IMG/VR virus record: IMGVR_UViG_3300017971_007885
Location: 36,483 to 100,482 of that record
Length of the DNA: 64,000 nt
Origin: a virus
Direction: 5' to 3' (one strand)
Every line of letters begins with the position of its first letter. Position 1 is the stretch's first letter. The notes below the pieces were generated by a model that saw only the letters and a list, made by a program, of their open reading frames with translations, did not search any database and was not told the DNA's origin. The translations under genes and the position numbers were made by a program. Shown in pieces: positions 1,755-18,913 of the stretch.

Positions 1755-4010
1755 ATGGATAAAGGTAAAACTATGGAGCCCAGATCAAACGATCAATTGG
1801 CCACGATGGCCAAAAAAGAATCATTGGCCCTTGCCCAAAAGGCCAGTGCGCCAAAATCATCGATCCAGCTTCGAGTAACCGATCCGGCAAAGTTGGCCGG
1901 CGGTTGGAGTTCGGGCTTGACCAATTTTGTGAACCTCTTGGCCGGTCAAGATCAAGGGTGCCCGCCATGGTCGTGCCCATTGCGCCGGGCTGACTATTTG
2001 GAATCGGTTTGGCGTAATGATAGCCGTCTATCAGGTGTGATCTTTACGATGGTTTCACGGATCGCTTCACTGGGGTGGGCCATTGTGGGGCCGATCAAGA
2101 AATTAAGACGTTGGTACGATATGCTTGCGTGGGCAGATGAAGAGGGATGGACTCAGTTTATCAAACTGTTTTTTGCCGACTATCTGACCACGGATGAAGG
2201 CGGGATTCTGGAAACAACCCGGAGCTTTTATCCCCGTGGTCCGCTCGTTTCTTTGTGGAATATGGACGCCAGGCACGCCATACCGGGACCGGTCACGTTG
2301 CCCGCAAAAACTGAAGTGGCCGGAAAGAGCACCAAGATGAAGTCTTGGCCGCTTATTTTCAAAGATCAAGATCATTGGAAGGGACTCAAGAAAGGGCAAT
2401 TTTTGCGCGTGGCCTCACTTCCGACCACGGACCAATTCAGACGGCGCATGGGGTTCTGTTTTATGTCTAGAATCTTGCGCTATGCCGCTCTAGCCGATGC
2501 CATGCTAAAGTTTCAAGAAGAGCGGGTGTCAAACTTGCCCCCAGAGGGGATCGCCACGATCTCAGGACTAACCAGGCCACAGGTCGAGAAGGCCATGCAG
2601 GAATACACCCTTCAGCGCAAACAAAAAAACCAGTTGACATGGCCGGGCGTGCTTTGGTTGGTATCCAATACCTATGGTCAGGAATGCAAGGTAGCTTTTA
2701 CAAGCTTTCGCCAGGTGTGGGAAAACTTTAGTGATCGGGAAGCAAACGAGGTTTTTTCTAAAGTCGTGGCACTGGATGCCGGGATCGATGTATCCGAGAT
2801 ATGGCAAGTGGAATTCCACGGGGCAACAAAGGCCGCTTCTTGGCTCCAGCACAAAAAGAGCTTGGGCAAGGGATCGGCTGAATTTATCGTGGAATTCGAG
2901 CGATGGATCGCCAGGAACACGCCTCAAGATATCGCTTTCCGCTTTGACACGCCGGACGACGAACAGGACGTGACGCATGAGCGGATCCGGCAAATGCGAA
3001 TTAAAAACATCAAGGAGCTTTGGGTACCGCCTCAAGGACAAGAAGAAGGACTGCTTACAAAAGAACAAGCTCTTGAGTTATTGGCCATGGAGCAGGTTAT
3101 ACCCAACTATATGGCCGCCCCAACTATAAGCACGGTGACTGACATTATCAAAAGCAACACAGGGGGGACCATTGGCCGGATGCACTTTCCTTCAGGGGCT
3201 ATCGAGATTGACCGGCCATATTGGCAACTTGATGCCACGATGCTGACAGCCGCCGATCTTGACCTGGAGCCGGTCAACCGGAATGATCCGGGGATCGATG
3301 CCTTGCTAGATGAAGCATCCCCAGAGTTGGCCACTCAACTAATCCCGATCGTCAAGCGGTGGGAAGACCTGAACGAGCGACTTAGGAGAGTGCTTGATCT
3401 ATGGCAAAGGGATATAATAAGCGAGTTGGAAGGCAACCCGGATATTTTGGCAGATCCAAACTACTGGAGCGGATGGGGCGATCAAATCTCAGATGCTCTT
3501 ATGCCCGCCTTTTATCAATCGGCACTCGAAGGCGGCATGAGTGTACTATCTCAACCCGGTCTAGATGTAAGCTTTGATCGGGTCAATCAAGTGGCCAGGC
3601 AGGTAGCACAAGAAGAGATGTTTGGCATGGTCAGCTTGACAGGCAATGAAAGCATAGTGCGATCACGCCGGGAACTGCTTGATCAAGTGCGCAAGGACTT
3701 GGCCACGGAAAAGATCGCTTGGACAGATGTGGAAGGGCGGCTTGCCCCCTACTTTGGAGCGGGCCGGGCACGTATGATTGCCGTGTCCGAGAACACCGAT
3801 CTATGGGCCGGGGCTCAGTTACGAACGGCCACGGGTGCAGGGCTCACGGAAAAGAGGTCTATCCGGGCTGACATTGGCCGGGTATGCCCAACCCACATAT
3901 GTGACGATGCGCAAGCGGCGGGGTGGGTGCCGATCGATGAAGAGATCGTGCCGGGTCATAAGCGCCCAAGATACCATCCTATGTGCTATTGTTTCACTCA
4001 ATACCGCTAA
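1755..4010 (+). CDS. Portal protein fused to a MuF/minor head morphogenesis domain
   Basis: Portal-sized helical N-terminal region at the start of the head module; C-terminus RARMIAVSE...CPTHIC...YHPMCYC is the MuF (SPP1 gp7-like) signature; alternative start 1773. Confidence 0.75.
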   Translation: MDKGKTMEPRSNDQLATMAKKESLALAQKASAPKSSIQLRVTDPAKLAGGWSSGLTNFVNLLAGQDQGCPPWSCPLRRADYLESVWRNDSRLSGVIFTMVSRIASLGWAIVGPIKKLRRWYDMLAWADEEGWTQFIKLFFADYLTTDEGGILETTRSFYPRGPLVSLWNMDARHAIPGPVTLPAKTEVAGKSTKMKSWPLIFKDQDHWKGLKKGQFLRVASLPTTDQFRRRMGFCFMSRILRYAALADAMLKFQEERVSNLPPEGIATISGLTRPQVEKAMQEYTLQRKQKNQLTWPGVLWLVSNTYGQECKVAFTSFRQVWENFSDREANEVFSKVVALDAGIDVSEIWQVEFHGATKAASWLQHKKSLGKGSAEFIVEFERWIARNTPQDIAFRFDTPDDEQDVTHERIRQMRIKNIKELWVPPQGQEEGLLTKEQALELLAMEQVIPNYMAAPTISTVTDIIKSNTGGTIGRMHFPSGAIEIDRPYWQLDATMLTAADLDLEPVNRNDPGIDALLDEASPELATQLIPIVKRWEDLNERLRRVLDLWQRDIISELEGNPDILADPNYWSGWGDQISDALMPAFYQSALEGGMSVLSQPGLDVSFDRVNQVARQVAQEEMFGMVSLTGNESIVRSRRELLDQVRKDLATEKIAWTDVEGRLAPYFGAGRARMIAVSENTDLWAGAQLRTATGAGLTEKRSIRADIGRVCPTHICDDAQAAGWVPIDEEIVPGHKRPRYHPMCYCFTQYR

Positions 4011-4030
4011 GCATCATAGAAAGATTGTCA

Positions 4031-5035
4031 ATGCCTAGAAAAGCAACTAGAATACAAAAAGTCTGTAAAGTTTGCGGTGAACCATTTGAAGTGCTCCCAA
4101 GTAGAGCCAAGAAGCGGTTTTGCTCCAAGTCATGCGCCGCCAAAGTAAACCGCAAGACTAAAAATCCAGTGTTTGTAAAGTGTCAACAATGTGGCGTAGA
4201 ATTCCAGGTGCCACCAAGTAGAAGAGATGCCAAGTTTTGTTCCAAAGAGTGCTATGGAGAATCCAAGAAGGGCATAGTGCCGGATGTAAAAGGCAAGCAT
4301 TGGTGGAATTCGGAGCCGGTCACTTTGGAATGTGAGCAGTGCCACGCACCGTTTCAGGTGCCAGAATCACGGAAAGGCACGGCGCGTTTTTGCACAAAAA
4401 CATGTGCCGATCTTTGGAGAGTAGGCCGGGATAGACCAGAAATGAAGCGCCAGGTCCAGGTAACTTGTGAACAGTGCGGCAAGACATTTTCAATCAATGC
4501 CGCCCAAACAGAACGGCGCTTTTGTTCTCGGGGTTGTCGTGCTCTATGGCTTGGTGAACTGCAAGCGGGCCAGGATCATCCAGGTTACAACAGTGAAGAG
4601 CGGGCTTGTTTGCAGTGCGGGAAGCCGATCCAGGTAACCAAGGGGTACAGAGAAAAGGGATGGGGTCAGTTTTGCAACCGGCAATGCCAGGCGCTCTATC
4701 AAGTGGGAGCCAATAGCCCGGCATGGAAGGGCGGCTTGTCTTTTGAGCCGTATCCCCCCGAGTTTAACGATCGGCTGAAGCGCCCGGTGTGGGCACGGGA
4801 TCGGGGTATTTGCCGGTGTGGATGTGGCCAACCCGGTGCCGATGTGCACCATGTGGACTATGACAAGGAAAACAACAGCTTGGGCAACTTGGTGCTTTTG
4901 GCCAAGTCATGCCACGGCAAAACGAACTTCAACCGGGAGCACTGGACGGCATTTTTCCAGGCCCAACAAGAGGGATTATCAAATGCCATACCCAAACGAG
5001 CACGCCGCAAGGCTCAACAACCCGGACAAGTATAA
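4031..5035 (+). CDS. HNH endonuclease with tandem Zn-ribbon repeats
   Basis: Five CxxCGxxF...FCSxxC-type repeats, then RDRGIC...DVHHVDYDKENN...LLAKSCHGKTN. Confidence 0.85.
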   Translation: MPRKATRIQKVCKVCGEPFEVLPSRAKKRFCSKSCAAKVNRKTKNPVFVKCQQCGVEFQVPPSRRDAKFCSKECYGESKKGIVPDVKGKHWWNSEPVTLECEQCHAPFQVPESRKGTARFCTKTCADLWRVGRDRPEMKRQVQVTCEQCGKTFSINAAQTERRFCSRGCRALWLGELQAGQDHPGYNSEERACLQCGKPIQVTKGYREKGWGQFCNRQCQALYQVGANSPAWKGGLSFEPYPPEFNDRLKRPVWARDRGICRCGCGQPGADVHHVDYDKENNSLGNLVLLAKSCHGKTNFNREHWTAFFQAQQEGLSNAIPKRARRKAQQPGQV

Positions 5036-6030: not shown

Positions 6031-6064
6031 CGGGCATGCGCTTTACGGGCGCATGCCCGTTTTT
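6031..6064 (+). terminator. Intrinsic terminator inside the head operon
   Basis: CGGGCATGCGC-TTTACGG-GCGCATGCCCG-TTTTT. Confidence 0.75.
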
Positions 6065-6086
6065 GCGTTTTGGGAGCAGGTGCATA

Positions 6087-6665
6087 ATGCAACACGGCAG
6101 GGCCATGGTGGCATTCTTTTTGCCCCAGTACGCGAGTGAACAACTGGACTCATTCAAGGAGCACTTTCCGCCAGGCTCTGAAGTGACGCCGCTTCAGGAT
6201 TATCATATCACCTTGGCCTATATGCCGGAAGTCAAGGATAAAGAGCTTTTGCGTGAAGTAGTCCGGGGGTTTGCACAAAACGAGCACCCAATATCCGGAC
6301 AGATCGGTGGTATCGGGCGTTTTGCCCACGATGAAAAGGGTACAAACCCATTTTACACGTCTTTTGATGCTCCAGTGTTGCCAGGCTTCCGCCAAAGGCT
6401 AGTAGAAAAGCTTGGCCAATACGGCATTGCGGTTTCAGAATTGCACGGCTTTATTCCACATTGCACCATGGCCTACATTCCAGCCAACACACACAACCCG
6501 GCCCTTGTGGTGCCATATATCGGGGTCACTTTTGATTGCATTTGGTTAGCATCCGACGATGATCGGGAACGGTTTCCGTTGGTATCCACGACGATGGAGC
6601 TAAAAAAAAGACTCGGGCCAAGAGCAAAAGCCCTTGCAGGAGTGATAGAGTATGCCAAGTCCTAG
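6087..6665 (+). CDS. 2H phosphoesterase (2'-5' RNA ligase/Acb1-like)
   Basis: Two HxT motifs, DYHITLAY and FIPHCTMAY; SD GGAGCAGG. Confidence 0.85.
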   Translation: MQHGRAMVAFFLPQYASEQLDSFKEHFPPGSEVTPLQDYHITLAYMPEVKDKELLREVVRGFAQNEHPISGQIGGIGRFAHDEKGTNPFYTSFDAPVLPGFRQRLVEKLGQYGIAVSELHGFIPHCTMAYIPANTHNPALVVPYIGVTFDCIWLASDDDRERFPLVSTTMELKKRLGPRAKALAGVIEYAKS

Positions 6666-7347: not shown

Positions 7348-9087
7348 ATGAGCTTATCACTGACAGGGATGCAAGGTCTTCATGGCCTCATAGGTAGAGT
7401 GCGGTGGTTGTTGCGGGATGACTTTTGCGACACGAGAGCGGCCGGCGCTGTCGATGGCACCCCGGCCACGCCTGGACCTGGAACGAGAACGGTGGTTGAC
7501 ACGGGCAATCACATGTCTGTGAATGGAGATTTTTTGACCACAGATGGGTCCGTTGCAACAGGAGATCCACGATGCTACTACAATGTTGTGTTTACTAGAC
7601 AGGCCGGTCTAGTAGCTCTTTGTGATATTGAAACGAATTCACGGATCTATTTTGGATTTGATAGTGGCGTCGGGGCAGAGCCAGATCTAGCCGCCTTGTC
7701 GTTTAACGGAACGCCTCTTTTTGCTTGGGATGGTGGAGTGGCACGCCAGGTTGGAACCATAGTTCTTGGTGCAAAGTATAAACTGGGCATTGTGTTGCGC
7801 ACATCAGGGCTGTACTGTTTCATCAAAGGACAAGCATTCACACATTGGACACTATTGTGGTTCAGTGCCGCAAATAATACAGCAAATTTGTATCTAGGGG
7901 CTTGTGGACGAACAGGCACACTGGATAGTGATTTTATCCGTGTCCCAGACGCCCTATGGCTCCCAAACCCGCTTGCCCATGACTCTTTCACTCGTGCCAA
8001 CGGGCCGCTAGGATCAACGGAAGATACAGGGCCAGATGGACAACCGTCAACGATCAGGGTGTGGCAGTTGGGTGGGGCGACATGGGCCGTGAGTGCAAAT
8101 GAAGCCGTCAACACGCCAACGTTGGGATCGGAAGAATTGACCAACGGTAACTTTACAGCCTGGACCGGGGATGATCCGGATAATTGGTCCGTTTTACTTG
8201 AGGATGTGAACAACTATGTCACCGAAAATCCGGCCAACAACGCACAAGTTGTGTCGGACGGATCAGCAGGTGTCAATCTCCGGCAGTCTTGCATGGGCGA
8301 AGGGTGGTTTCGCATTCAAGCGGTCGTTTCTGCACATGCCGTTGGCGGGCTTAAAATCTACAACACTGATGGGGAATGGATTTTTCAAAGCGGAAAACCC
8401 AATGCGGTTGGAACGTGGGAGAGTAGCCAATACAACAGCGGTGTAGGAATGTCGCTCATCGTCCAGGCGGCGGCGGCCTGTGATATCACGCTTGATAGTG
8501 TCAGCGTGAAACGGCTGACCACAAAAGAGCTATTCTCAGCCGTGCAAGTAGCAACGGCAGATGTACTTGCCAGTGTCGAGATTGACGCAATGCCAGTTTC
8601 AGGAACTGAATATGCCCAGGCCGGCCTTATGCTCAACCTTGACGATCCGGACAACCCGCAAAACTATGTGTTAGTCCTTATGGATACAGCACCGTTGTCA
8701 CTCGGATTTGTGCGAATTCACAAGTGGGTAGCCGGGGTGAGGACGAATGTTGCAAACACAAGTGTTGCTTATGTACCCGGCGCAACGCTTGTAGCCGTTA
8801 AGGATGGCACATCCTATTCAGTGTACTATAACAACTCGCTCGTAGGAACGACACAGACCATTGCTGATGCCGGGATTATCAATAACACGTTACACGGCAT
8901 GTTCAGCACGCACGAAGACAACCAGTTAGACAACTTTCAGGTGTTCGCTCGTGGAACAGGTAACGAGTACAACCGGCTGGATGCGTGGTCATTTGACGGC
9001 AATTGTGCTGCCTGTGTTTGACTGCTTTTAATGGAATCAGGCGATTTCCTACTACTCGAAAGCGGGGACAAGATTTTATTGGAGTAA
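7348..9087 (+). CDS. Virion carbohydrate-binding/decoration protein; UGA at 9019-9021 probably recoded (candidate Sec), extending the ORF from 9021 to 9087
   Basis: Beta-rich CBM/lectin-like modules; after ...NCAACV-TGA the frame continues LLLMESGDFLLLESGDKILLE* and ends 4 nt before the next ATG. Confidence 0.65.
9033..9049 (+). promoter_or_regulatory. Bacterial SECIS-like hairpin
   Basis: GGAATC-AGGC-GAT(T)TCC, 11 nt after UGA; same spacing and length as the E. coli fdhF minimal SECIS. Confidence 0.55.
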
Positions 9088-9091
9088 AACG

Positions 9092-11263
9092 ATGCCCGAC
9101 ACAAAGATATCAAATTTGACACCGTTGGCTACCGCCGTTAAAGGTGACGTGCTCCCGATCGTCAACGGGGGCGCAACCAAAAAGATCACGGTTGAAGACT
9201 TGTTGCGTTACGAGAACGTGATCACGGTTGCCAAAAGCGGGCCGGCGGACTATACAACTATTGAAGCGGCTCTTGCTGTAGCGGCGGCTCGTGATGTGAT
9301 CATGGTTGCGCCGGGTATCTATTCTGAAAACAACCCTTTGACCGTGCCCGATCAGGTCACGATCATGGCACTCGGGGAGCAGAACACAACCCGGATAGAA
9401 GCAGCCAATGCCAACCAGGATCTGTTCACGAGTGCTAACTTTTTTATCGTCACGGGCTTTTCTATTGCCGATGTAGCTGGAACTGGTTGGATCATTGACG
9501 TAAACGCCGCCGATGCCGTGATTTTTGAGGACTGTGTTGTCTATGAGTGTGAGCAGGGATTCAGAACGTCTCACGTGTCCGCCACGCTGACCTTGGGCAA
9601 TATATTCTTTTTGACCTTGGGCGTTACCAAGACCGATCCGTGCGTTCGGAACAACGCCGGAAACATCACCGTTGCCGGTGGGCGTATTGGCGTAGGCTCT
9701 TTGATCGGTTGCGTTTTCAATGTGGACGGCGCAAATGCGATCACCACCGTGCTTCACTTTCTGACATTTGAAACCACCGTTGACTATGTTGTGGTAGCTG
9801 ACAACGGGGCACGCTCTGTTTTTACCGGGTGTTCGTTTGTGGGAATGAACGATGCGGCTTCTTTGGCCGGTGGAAGCGATACGCGATTTGTCGCCACGTC
9901 TGTCTTTTTGGCCGGGAATGATGCGATCCGAATTGAAAACAGCGGAGCCAACACAAACTTTGTAGGCCAAGGGATCACGGTTGAGTCAACGACTCGCTAC
10001 GATCTCAACATTTTGAGTGCAACGGGTACAGTATCGGGGTTTGGACAGTCTGCGCTTGATCAGATGAACTTTGTTACGGGAGCGCAGTTTACAGCCAGCT
10101 TTGTGGACTTGAAAGAGGACGACGAAGGGCTGAATGTCGTTGGGGAACTTCACGTTGGCATACCGGAACTTGGCGCAGAATCGGTTATGGGCCAGGGCGA
10201 TAGTTACACACGTGGTATGCTTGTCTACACTTATAATCCAGCCGGGCCGGTGTGGGCTGATGTTAGTGTCGCCGCCCGATCTGCTTCCGGGTCCACATTC
10301 ACATTTCCGGCAGTGGCGGCAAATAACGCGATCTATGTTGCTTCCAGCTTGGCGGATGCTTCGGACTATTTGCACCACGATGGAATCAAGGCCAGCATTA
10401 CAACCGCCGCCGTTTTGGGTGGTGGGTCGATCGTGGTCGAATACTGGAACGGGGCGGCCTGGGTGCCCATTGATCACATGTCCACGCTATCAAATGCCCC
10501 CTATACTCAGTATGGAAAGAATATCTTTGAGCGGACAGGCTCCGAACAAATCCGCTATCCGTTGGCCTTTGTATCGTCTTGGACCAAAAACGATCCAGTG
10601 ACGCCGGCCATTGGCACAAATTACTTTTGGATGCGTTTCCGGGTTGTAGGCGGGATTACCACGGCACCGATCTTTGAGCAATTCAAGCTACACACCGATC
10701 GCTTTGAGGTTAACGCTGATGGCGTCACGGAGTATTTTGGCCATGCCCGCTATCCGCAAGATTTGAGACTAGACTATCGGGAACTAAGCGGCTTTTCTCC
10801 AGGCAATCAGAATGTTGCTTATGGAACCGGGGTCACGTTTGTTTATATCAATAACAAGTTTGTAGATGGCAAAAAGGACGGATTTGGTGTTTACGTGACC
10901 ATTCCGACAGGTATCGACACAAGTTTGCCACTCCGCTTTGCCTGGAACTGGTATGCAGACACGGCCAATGCCGGGGATGTGGAATTTACTGTAGAAGATA
11001 TACAGCTTGAGGTAGGTGATCTGATAGATGGCACGGCCGGCACCACAACTTATACCACGGTTGAGACTGTCGGGGCTGGAACCAGATACGTTTTCCGCCA
11101 GTCTTACCTTGACCTGGATATCTCGGATTTGGTGCCTGGGGAAGCCGTGGCCATCGCTCTTTATCGTGATGCAACAGCACCCAATGATCCGCCTGATACA
11201 CTAAACGGTGATGTTGTGATCTTTGGTGATATCCGGGCGATCGGTTACTTTTGGCGGCCATGA
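9092..11263 (+). CDS. Beta-helix (pectin lyase/pectinesterase-like) virion fibre or spike
   Basis: MPDTKISNL N-terminus; ITVAKSGPADYTTIEAAL...VAPGIYSE beta-helix cap. Confidence 0.7.
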   Translation: MPDTKISNLTPLATAVKGDVLPIVNGGATKKITVEDLLRYENVITVAKSGPADYTTIEAALAVAAARDVIMVAPGIYSENNPLTVPDQVTIMALGEQNTTRIEAANANQDLFTSANFFIVTGFSIADVAGTGWIIDVNAADAVIFEDCVVYECEQGFRTSHVSATLTLGNIFFLTLGVTKTDPCVRNNAGNITVAGGRIGVGSLIGCVFNVDGANAITTVLHFLTFETTVDYVVVADNGARSVFTGCSFVGMNDAASLAGGSDTRFVATSVFLAGNDAIRIENSGANTNFVGQGITVESTTRYDLNILSATGTVSGFGQSALDQMNFVTGAQFTASFVDLKEDDEGLNVVGELHVGIPELGAESVMGQGDSYTRGMLVYTYNPAGPVWADVSVAARSASGSTFTFPAVAANNAIYVASSLADASDYLHHDGIKASITTAAVLGGGSIVVEYWNGAAWVPIDHMSTLSNAPYTQYGKNIFERTGSEQIRYPLAFVSSWTKNDPVTPAIGTNYFWMRFRVVGGITTAPIFEQFKLHTDRFEVNADGVTEYFGHARYPQDLRLDYRELSGFSPGNQNVAYGTGVTFVYINNKFVDGKKDGFGVYVTIPTGIDTSLPLRFAWNWYADTANAGDVEFTVEDIQLEVGDLIDGTAGTTTYTTVETVGAGTRYVFRQSYLDLDISDLVPGEAVAIALYRDATAPNDPPDTLNGDVVIFGDIRAIGYFWRP

Positions 11264-18128: not shown

Positions 18129-18674
18129 ATGGAACAAAGTACACGGATGGGGTTGGTTGAGTACATAGGAGCCAAGACGGCTTCTTTCTCAGTAGCCTAT
18201 AACCCAACTCAGGGCCGGACCGTGAACCGGATGTGGGCGGCCATTGGTAACGATCAATCGCCCATGATCAAACAAAGAAGGTGGTTGCCGGAGCCAGAGG
18301 CACGATTTTACAACGCTTTTGCGGACTTTAGGCTTTTGCGATGGGGATCGAGCGTTTCAACCGAACCGGTCAGAACGCCGGTGGTTACTGCATTCTCGGA
18401 GCCGATTCCGGAACCGCAAGCCCTTCCTTTGCACGTGCTTTTACAACAGCAAAGAGATGCAATGATGGCCGTTGCCCCGGCCGGCGCGATCGTGACCAAG
18501 GACATAGAAGAGATCGGGCCGCAATATCTCATGTCAAAATCTGGAACTGTTCACAGGCCAGAATGCTCTTCAGCCAAGAGGATCAAAACGCCGGTAGAAT
18601 TCCATACGATGGAAGACGTAACCGCCGATCCGAACTTCAAAAAGTTTCATAGTTGTTGTGAGGGATTAACGTAA
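18129..18674 (+). CDS. Hypothetical capsid-associated protein with C-terminal metal-binding motif
   Basis: VEYIG N-terminal motif shared with the next gene; VHRPEC...HSCC. Confidence 0.55.
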   Translation: MEQSTRMGLVEYIGAKTASFSVAYNPTQGRTVNRMWAAIGNDQSPMIKQRRWLPEPEARFYNAFADFRLLRWGSSVSTEPVRTPVVTAFSEPIPEPQALPLHVLLQQQRDAMMAVAPAGAIVTKDIEEIGPQYLMSKSGTVHRPECSSAKRIKTPVEFHTMEDVTADPNFKKFHSCCEGLT

Positions 18675-18913
18675 TGGGTTGAGGGTGCCCAACTCGGACG
18701 GGTCCGAGCAGAACCAGGCCACGGCGGATTTTCAAACCAGATCCAACGTGGAAGCAGATCCTGTACATCGGTGGGCGTGCGGGCACGTTTACCGTGCCGG
18801 GAGGATATACCGGCCAAGATTACGCTATTTGTCCAAATACGCTTATACCAGTGCACCCACGGGACATGCCTTTTTTTGAGGGTAGGCCAAGGGAGTATAA
18901 AACAGTATGGTGA
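18674..18913 (+). CDS. Candidate selenoprotein, 79 aa: MG(U)GCPTRTG...ILYIGGRAGTFTVPGGYTGQDYAICPNTLIPVHPRDMPFF...
   Basis: ATG overlaps the upstream TAA, has an SD, in-frame TGA at codon 3 in an MGxGC motif; frame stays open to 18913 and overlaps the next start; not in the ORF track. Confidence 0.7.
18693..18708 (+). promoter_or_regulatory. Bacterial SECIS-like hairpin
   Basis: CTCGGA-CGGG-TCCGAG with G-rich apical loop, 10 nt after UGA 18680-18682. Confidence 0.6.

Follow-up and report, generated by a model that had tools for sequence, protein, structure and literature searches.

In phage Qbeta, the A1 protein arises because a leaky UGA closing a structural gene is decoded by a near-cognate tRNA without SelB, so that a minor C-terminally extended isoform is made beside the major short one. 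In phages T7 (capsid proteins 10A/10B) and lambda (gpG/gpGT), a small, fixed share of the ribosomes likewise extends the C-terminus of a virion or assembly protein. In Escherichia coli fdhF, an in-frame UGA is followed by the SECIS, a 17-nt stem-loop starting 11 nt downstream, with GG and then U in the loop and a bulged U on the 5' side. The locus that we analysed in a tailed dsDNA prophage bears a likeness to each of them: to fdhF by an in-frame UGA (position 9019) with a 17-nt stem-loop 11 nt further on and GG in its loop, and to Qbeta, T7 and lambda by the minor, C-terminally extended isoform that we propose. On our reading, UGA 9019 is an ordinary stop codon and not a selenocysteine codon, and it lies in the flexible linker joining a lectin-like virion protein to a conserved 21-residue LLLExGD tail.

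The window, that is, the whole stretch of DNA that was analysed (64,000 nucleotides), is the last 64 kb of a 100,482-bp IMG/VR record classed as a provirus (features in Table 1). A reading made earlier from the sequence only described a 557-aa ORF ending at TGA 9019 and an open continuation running to just before the next ATG, and both are there. The same reading had left room for the TGA being unsupported by reads. The codon is carried by contigs from three public runs belonging to three studies, in a stretch without any difference between them (two runs have a contig depth of about 16-17x and possibly represent the source sample; the third has 4.6x). Because it is identical in the contigs of the three runs, TGA 9019 is real DNA and not an assembly slip. 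A megablast search of positions 7348-11263 against deposited phages returned no match. The window also contains an HNH endonuclease gene and a 2'-5' RNA ligase/LigT-like gene (3983-5035 and 6036-6665), which separate the fibre pair from the putative portal gene.

Table 1. Features around UGA 9019 and at the second in-frame TGA of the window
Feature	Position	Strand	Remark
ORF of 557 aa, C-terminus ...FDGNCAACV	7348-9021	+	stop is TGA 9019-9021
Carrier protein body, all-beta, three ConA/LamG/CBM66-like beta-sandwich domains	7348..9018	+	AF2 and Foldseek
C-terminal linker WSFDGNCAACV	8986..9018	+	otherwise only in the closest homolog (WSYDYTCPAVPPGV); the rest of the family stops short of it
In-frame stop codon TGA, next base C (GTT TGA C)	9019-9021	+	aligned with Gly of the closest homolog's linker
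Frame beyond TGA 9019, 21 codons, LLLMESGDFLLLESGDKILLE	9022-9084	+	
Tail LLLMESGDFLLLESGDKILLE, three 8-residue hhhE-xGD-x units	9022..9084	+	intact member of the C-terminal LLLE tail family
ATG within the first repeat	9031..9033	+	no Shine-Dalgarno; LLME variant also in other tails
17-mer GGAAUCAGGCGAUUUCC, proposed SECIS	9033-9049	+	weak hairpin, chance level
GGAG Shine-Dalgarno of the fibre gene	9081..9084	+	inside the last two tail codons (TTG GAG)
TAA closing the extended frame	9085-9087	+	4 nt, then fibre ATG 9092
Fibre or tailspike-like protein, 723 aa, pectate-lyase-type beta-helix	9092..11263	+	weak tail-fibre PHROG match
N-terminal head of the 723-aa protein, about 38 aa, MPDTKISNL...PIVNGGATKKIT	9092-9205	+	
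ATG GGT TGA, then 76 open codons, conserved small protein	18674-18913		TGA 18680-18682

We sought Pfam and PHROG families for the 557-aa protein and found none; its homologs, about 50 in number, are in metagenomes. The AF2 model (pLDDT 79, pTM 0.79) consists of three beta-sandwich domains, for which Foldseek returned CBM66, laminin LG and GH43 accessory modules, all of them beta-sandwiches, and this points to a lectin-like product. Nearly all members of the family stop at ...GEYxxLDxY and lack the tail, and the gene that comes after them is different from the fibre gene. The sole member sharing the extra linker is the closest homolog, P0003 (= L033, on contig Ga0180434_10000565), which has 45% identity and keeps the gene order. 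Its frame runs without any stop through that linker into MLLETGVDQLLLEDGDGIELE, and the tail ends in a TAATG overlap with a gene of the same fibre kind, starting MADQKITDL. Aligning homolog C-termini across the stop, the check proposed for the earlier reading, places a Gly, not a Cys, opposite UGA 9019, within a Pro/Gly linker (PPGV) of the only homolog that reaches this position. Since linker and tail are unbroken in the closest homolog, the fused state is ancestral and TGA 9019 arose within the linker. No relative closer than this homolog was found when we looked for one. When the 579-aa read-through product was modelled with AF2 (TGA read as W), residues 551-579 had a pLDDT of about 38-40, but the alignment is so shallow there that this value argues neither way. 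Homologs of the three-beta-sandwich protein also occur in Patescibacteria metagenome-assembled genomes (L233-L235, L236-L238, L239), and the Candidatus Gottesmanbacteria chromosome OY969569.1 (L236-L238) carries three copies within 26 kb.

To assess the integrity of the tail, a profile was built from 32 tails of other phages and searched against the six-frame translation of the 100-kb record. The sole match is the stretch that follows UGA 9019 (9022-9084; E 4.5e-11, 39.8 bits), the next best peptide having an E-value of 0.75. Intact tails average 39.9 ± 5.4 bits; the window tail therefore scores at their mean. In a simulation, only 5-9% of tails remained in the intact score range after 10% neutral divergence. 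Hence, unless the stop is young, the tail is still being translated. Judged by this profile and by its fusion in the closest homolog, the tail is a real conserved module belonging to the 557-aa protein.

The tail is also part of a wider arrangement. A scan of IMG/VR contigs for LLLExGDxLLLE yielded at least 120 loci, which bears out what the earlier reading had said, namely that LLxExG..LLLE repeats are a recurrent ending of phage virion proteins. Among the matches listed, 35 of the 42 motifs that end a frame are followed, at most 19 nt further on, by a gene starting with a MADxK(I/L)(S/T)xL head, and several of the other seven have the same head behind a leader sequence; internal copies, again among the matches listed, have a head gene next to them in only 3 cases out of 67. 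The listed carriers range from 43-59 aa up to 2068 aa and include relatives of head-closure, baseplate-wedge and tail proteins. Looking from the other side, a strict tail lies upstream of MADTKIS heads in 14 cases out of 116, and a degenerate tail in about a dozen more. As 35/42 tails precede a head but only 14/116 heads follow a strict tail, the tail needs the head and not vice versa. The junction pattern LLE-TAATG-GCN-GAY was present in 16 loci only, and no natural fusion of tail and head was found in about 400 loci. In other phages, the tail is the extreme C-terminus of whatever protein adjoins the MADxK(I/L)(S/T)xL fibre gene upstream, and we infer from this gene adjacency that it may be a docking peptide for the fibre head.

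The phage under study fits this arrangement in part. Its record contains exactly one tail and one head, adjacent to each other; the hhhE-xGD-x units end the frame, and the MPDTKISNL head gene follows 4 nt past the TAA. The tail is not continuous with a self-starting carrier ORF, since the TGA precedes the first repeat and ATG 9031 has no Shine-Dalgarno. We found no Pfam or PHROG model covering the LLLE tail, and a literature search turned up no phage paper in which either the tail or the head motif is named. A tblastn search with the 21-aa tail gave one weak match (E 8), a protein whose C-terminus is LLLE-like on inspection. With the fibre head of the window, tblastn against deposited phages gave no match at E 0.01, and relatives of the fibre body have different N-termini. 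As far as could be checked, the tail-head gene-pair rule in uncultured phages is new. Whatever the fate of read-through, it is a simple one: a short LLLExGD tail at a gene end is almost always followed by a fibre gene with a MADxKISxL head. In annotation, it could help to locate the attachment points of fibres and the borders of exchangeable fibre modules.

The repeat and the head are each met outside this pairing as well. The LLLExGD repeat also has internal copies: in proteins of about 1150 aa (L124, L129, L130, L135, L138 and others), it lies some 140 residues from the C-terminus, in the context DDTSA.YFRTS...LLLEDGD.LLLEDGDK..ESDIDFG.W.PM and with no head gene after it; it is present too in families of 326 aa and 502 aa, again with no head genes following. 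MADTKIS loci devoid of a tail (for example L290, L312, L314 and L394, the last being Phage DSL-LC05) mostly follow a gene ending in TYS.AG..LTFS.APP..S.IEVNY and then a stop. This C-terminus may be a second kind of partner end for MADTKIS heads.

How, then, should the stop ahead of the tail be understood? Our preferred reading, which we hold tentatively, is a SelB-independent read-through of the weak UGA-C that gives a minor tail-bearing isoform. Most ribosomes would terminate at UGA 9019 and release the tail-less 557-aa protein; a small share would decode UGA-C with a near-cognate tRNA, most likely tRNA-Trp, without SelB, and produce a 579-aa isoform whose junction reads CAACV-X-LLLMESGDFLLLESGDK. 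UGA-C is said to be the weakest termination signal of E. coli, a result ascribed to Poole, Brown and Tate in 1995. UGA read-through in wild-type E. coli amounts to about 2-4%, with Trp-tRNA(Trp) competing with RF2 (PMC10570021). Several observations argue for such a read-through at 9019. Firstly, the closest homolog has the same linker and tail fused, and the same kind of fibre gene next. Secondly, the extension is conserved at the protein level: the tail is undecayed by its profile score, and tail and head form a module. Thirdly, the stop sits exactly at the junction between body and tail, in the leaky UGA-C signal. Read-through would add a real tag, because the 21 codons encode a conserved tail that is fused in the closest homolog. 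The earlier proposal that read-through of the UGA adds an assembly tag, giving short and long isoforms, is therefore kept as regards the tag, which is genuine, and given up as regards the selenocysteine route. We infer that read-through would reach a useful level. As the gene now stands, the tail can be produced only by leaky read-through, if at all.

Other observations speak against read-through. The stop is not conserved along with the extension in relatives: no stop was seen in 56 tails (the 42 listed and 14 more), and every other tail examined is either continuous with its carrier or part of a separate small gene. A stimulating structure downstream of UGA 9019 was not evident from folding and from comparison with the TGA background. 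Small carriers are in frame with the gene upstream in 5 cases out of 15, which is the chance rate and thus does not point to read-through as a general habit. We also considered a +1 shift at GUU UGA C, a prfB-like site, and rejected it because the +1 frame stops after three codons.

A second in-frame TGA bears on the origin of the first. At 18674, a frame opens with ATG, preceded by a normal Shine-Dalgarno (-6.1 kcal/mol), and meets a TGA at its third codon; no canonical start was found between this TGA and the conserved core. Beyond it, the frame has four homologs, the best of which is P0051 (71 aa, E 2.3e-25); in the N-terminus of this homolog, MARPTR, an Arg lies close to the position aligned with the TGA. 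Both in-frame TGAs stand where a nonsense codon is least harmful, one at the third codon and the other 22 codons short of the end of its gene. The sequence-only reading had taken two sites as the mark of a system. Site 18680 does add another TGA inside a conserved frame; in this phage, however, TGA serves as an ordinary stop, both positions are tolerable, and such a stop was seen in no other phage that has this tail. The two-TGA pattern fits a leaky or tolerated UGA as well as it fits mild decay of a prophage, and not a recoding system.

The main rival reading, only slightly less probable than the preferred one, is that UGA 9019 is a recent nonsense mutation, by which a sense codon of the linker (GGA or CGA, for example) became TGA in the prophage lineage and left an orphaned, effectively unexpressed tail that has not yet decayed. 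Mutational load is a fair alternative because the record is a provirus and because the second conserved frame has its own early TGA. It would account for the unbroken state of all other tails and for the fused homolog with its Gly at the aligned position, and it agrees with the absence of the tail from most relatives of the 557-aa protein. Data of this kind do contain broken tails: in one locus of another phage (L117), a 10-nt duplication disrupts the tail. On the other hand, a tail scoring at the intact mean implies that the mutation is younger than about 5% neutral divergence. Moreover, the stop would have fallen exactly on the domain junction and in the leakiest context, out of about 12,000 late codons; the late genes listed are otherwise open from start to stop, and the sequence is identical in three runs.

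A bolder form of the read-through reading, which we regard as unlikely, is that UGA 9019 is kept on purpose. A fixed, low near-cognate read-through would then dose the tailed lectin-like copies that can be tethered to the MADTKIS head of the fibre, making it a Qbeta-A1-like device in a tailed dsDNA phage. If this were true, the dosing would make use of a tail-head docking pair that is widespread and, to the extent that we could find, previously undescribed. As to whether UGA 9019 is maintained by selection or merely tolerated, the sequence fits both arrangements.

Reinitiation is improbable. Here, ribosomes would stop at UGA 9019 and restart at AUG 9031, only 9 nt past it, to make a free 18-residue peptide, MESGDFLLLESGDKILLE, comparable to the separate small carriers of 43-59 aa that are common in other phages. 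Those small carriers bear out only in part the case of homologs encoding the motif as a mini-ORF, which the earlier reading itself had named as a refutation: they have a conserved N-terminus of their own (M.I.LGLGLG) that is missing here, and ATG 9031 has no ribosome-binding site. With a Shine-Dalgarno energy of +0.7 kcal/mol (the median over genes being -6.65), this ATG is equalled or bettered by 94% of the ATGs in the window. The peptide would also lack the first LLL strand, whose codons are still present in the 9 nt separating UGA and AUG. The Met itself is a normal variant of the first repeat, as seen in the tail SLLMESGSYLLLESGSNILLE of L298. An independent 18-aa mini-gene is thus unlikely, because ATG 9031 lacks a Shine-Dalgarno and its Met is an ordinary repeat variant.

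The small carriers of 43-59 aa (L298:1078-1215(-), L284:426-566(-), L133:1584-1730(+) and L167) have an N-terminus in which I/L and G alternate (M.I.LGLGLG, CIGIGIGM). They have no Pfam or PHROG match and appear to be an unannotated small-protein family. In L117 (IMGVR_UViG_3300032067_000004, minus strand), an LLLE tail (motif at 2906-2941) precedes a gene with a MADEKLSQL head. Some 30 nt ahead of the motif, GTAGAAACGG stands twice, and this 10-nt tandem duplication shifts the tail into another frame; without it, a mini-protein of about 40 aa would continue into the tail.

It is very improbable that this phage reads UGA as sense, by genetic code 4 or 25 or with a suppressor tRNA of its own, or that the TGA stems from faulty assembly. 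The occurrence of an in-frame TGA in each of two conserved frames and the body homologs in Patescibacteria metagenome-assembled genomes speak for such an explanation. Against it, TGA terminates 7 of the 34 late genes, two ATGA-overlap junctions and one tandem stop being among these cases, and since it serves as a normal stop in late genes the code is neither table 4 nor table 25. Read with table 11, the late ORFs stay open over as many as 1353 codons, and the record contains no tRNA gene. Thus, neither a disuse of TGA as a stop, nor many in-frame TGAs, nor a tRNA with a UCA anticodon was found. As for an assembly error, the presence of the TGA in contigs of three runs opposes it.

The earlier reading also proposed an fdhF-like hairpin. 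The position and spacing that it gave hold: a 17-nt hairpin with GG in the loop lies exactly 11 nt past UGA 9019. Its minimum-energy fold (-3.9 kcal/mol) has a stem of six base pairs, one of them G-U, capped by an AGGC tetraloop, and the bulged U that had been described is absent from it. In longer contexts, the z-scores are -0.9 to +0.8, no better than shuffled sequence. An equally stable 17-mer lies at +11 beside 5.9% of all 2219 TGA trinucleotides of the window, and with spacing and length left free 65% of the window TGAs have an equally stable hairpin. Searched in Rfam, the hairpin region matched no family, bacterial SECIS models included, at E up to 10; the hairpin was not terminator-like either. 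Neither tRNA genes, tRNA-Sec included, nor selB were found in the whole 100-kb phage record. Compared with the fdhF SECIS, site 9019 therefore has a weak stem at chance level, AGGC in place of the GGUC loop (no U after GG), no bulged U on the 5' side, no notable lower helix, no Rfam match, no Cys homolog and no Sec genes in view; what it shares with a selenoprotein gene is the in-frame UGA, here after CxxC, with the frame continuing, and neither Cys nor Sec was found at the aligned position in the homologs, the closest having Gly and the remaining family members ending earlier. Selenocysteine insertion at UGA 9019, decoded by a host SelB with the hairpin at +11 as its SECIS, is the least probable explanation of all and is not supported. 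If the stop were a mere fresh nonsense mutation, the finding would be an ordinary one, with a caution against calling any UGA accompanied by a small hairpin selenocysteine.

Among deposited phages, the tail and the head each have a counterpart. The virion structural protein WBC28471.1 of Rhodobacteraceae phage LS06-2018-MD05 carries hhhE-xGD-x units at its very C-terminus, as here. The known LLLE tails consist of two or three such units and are unbroken with their carrier; in the window phage, an in-frame UGA cuts the tail off. The head of Roseobacter phage CRP-4 gp53, a putative fiber protein, and those of the fibre/adaptor proteins of Phage DSL-LC05 and Halomonas phage QHHSV-1 have the same MA(D/N/Q)xKIS.L...PxVQGGxTK pattern as the gene at 9092. 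These cultured phages differ in the gene upstream of the head gene, which has no LLLE tail and ends, for example, in TLTFSEAPP...Y.

If read-through at UGA 9019 is functional, it would be a rare case of a minor structural isoform made by stop-codon read-through in a tailed dsDNA phage. The closest parallel, Qbeta, is a single-stranded RNA levivirus, whereas the present phage is a tailed dsDNA prophage; the Qbeta extension is a folded domain of about 200 aa, whereas the one proposed here is a linear tail of 21 residues; and in Qbeta both stop and extension are conserved across relatives, whereas here the stop is absent from the only relative with the tail. T7 10A/10B and lambda gpG/gpGT reach their extended proteins by -1 slippage at conserved slippery sites; at site 9019, in contrast, the frame is unchanged and the weak stop is the sole signal.
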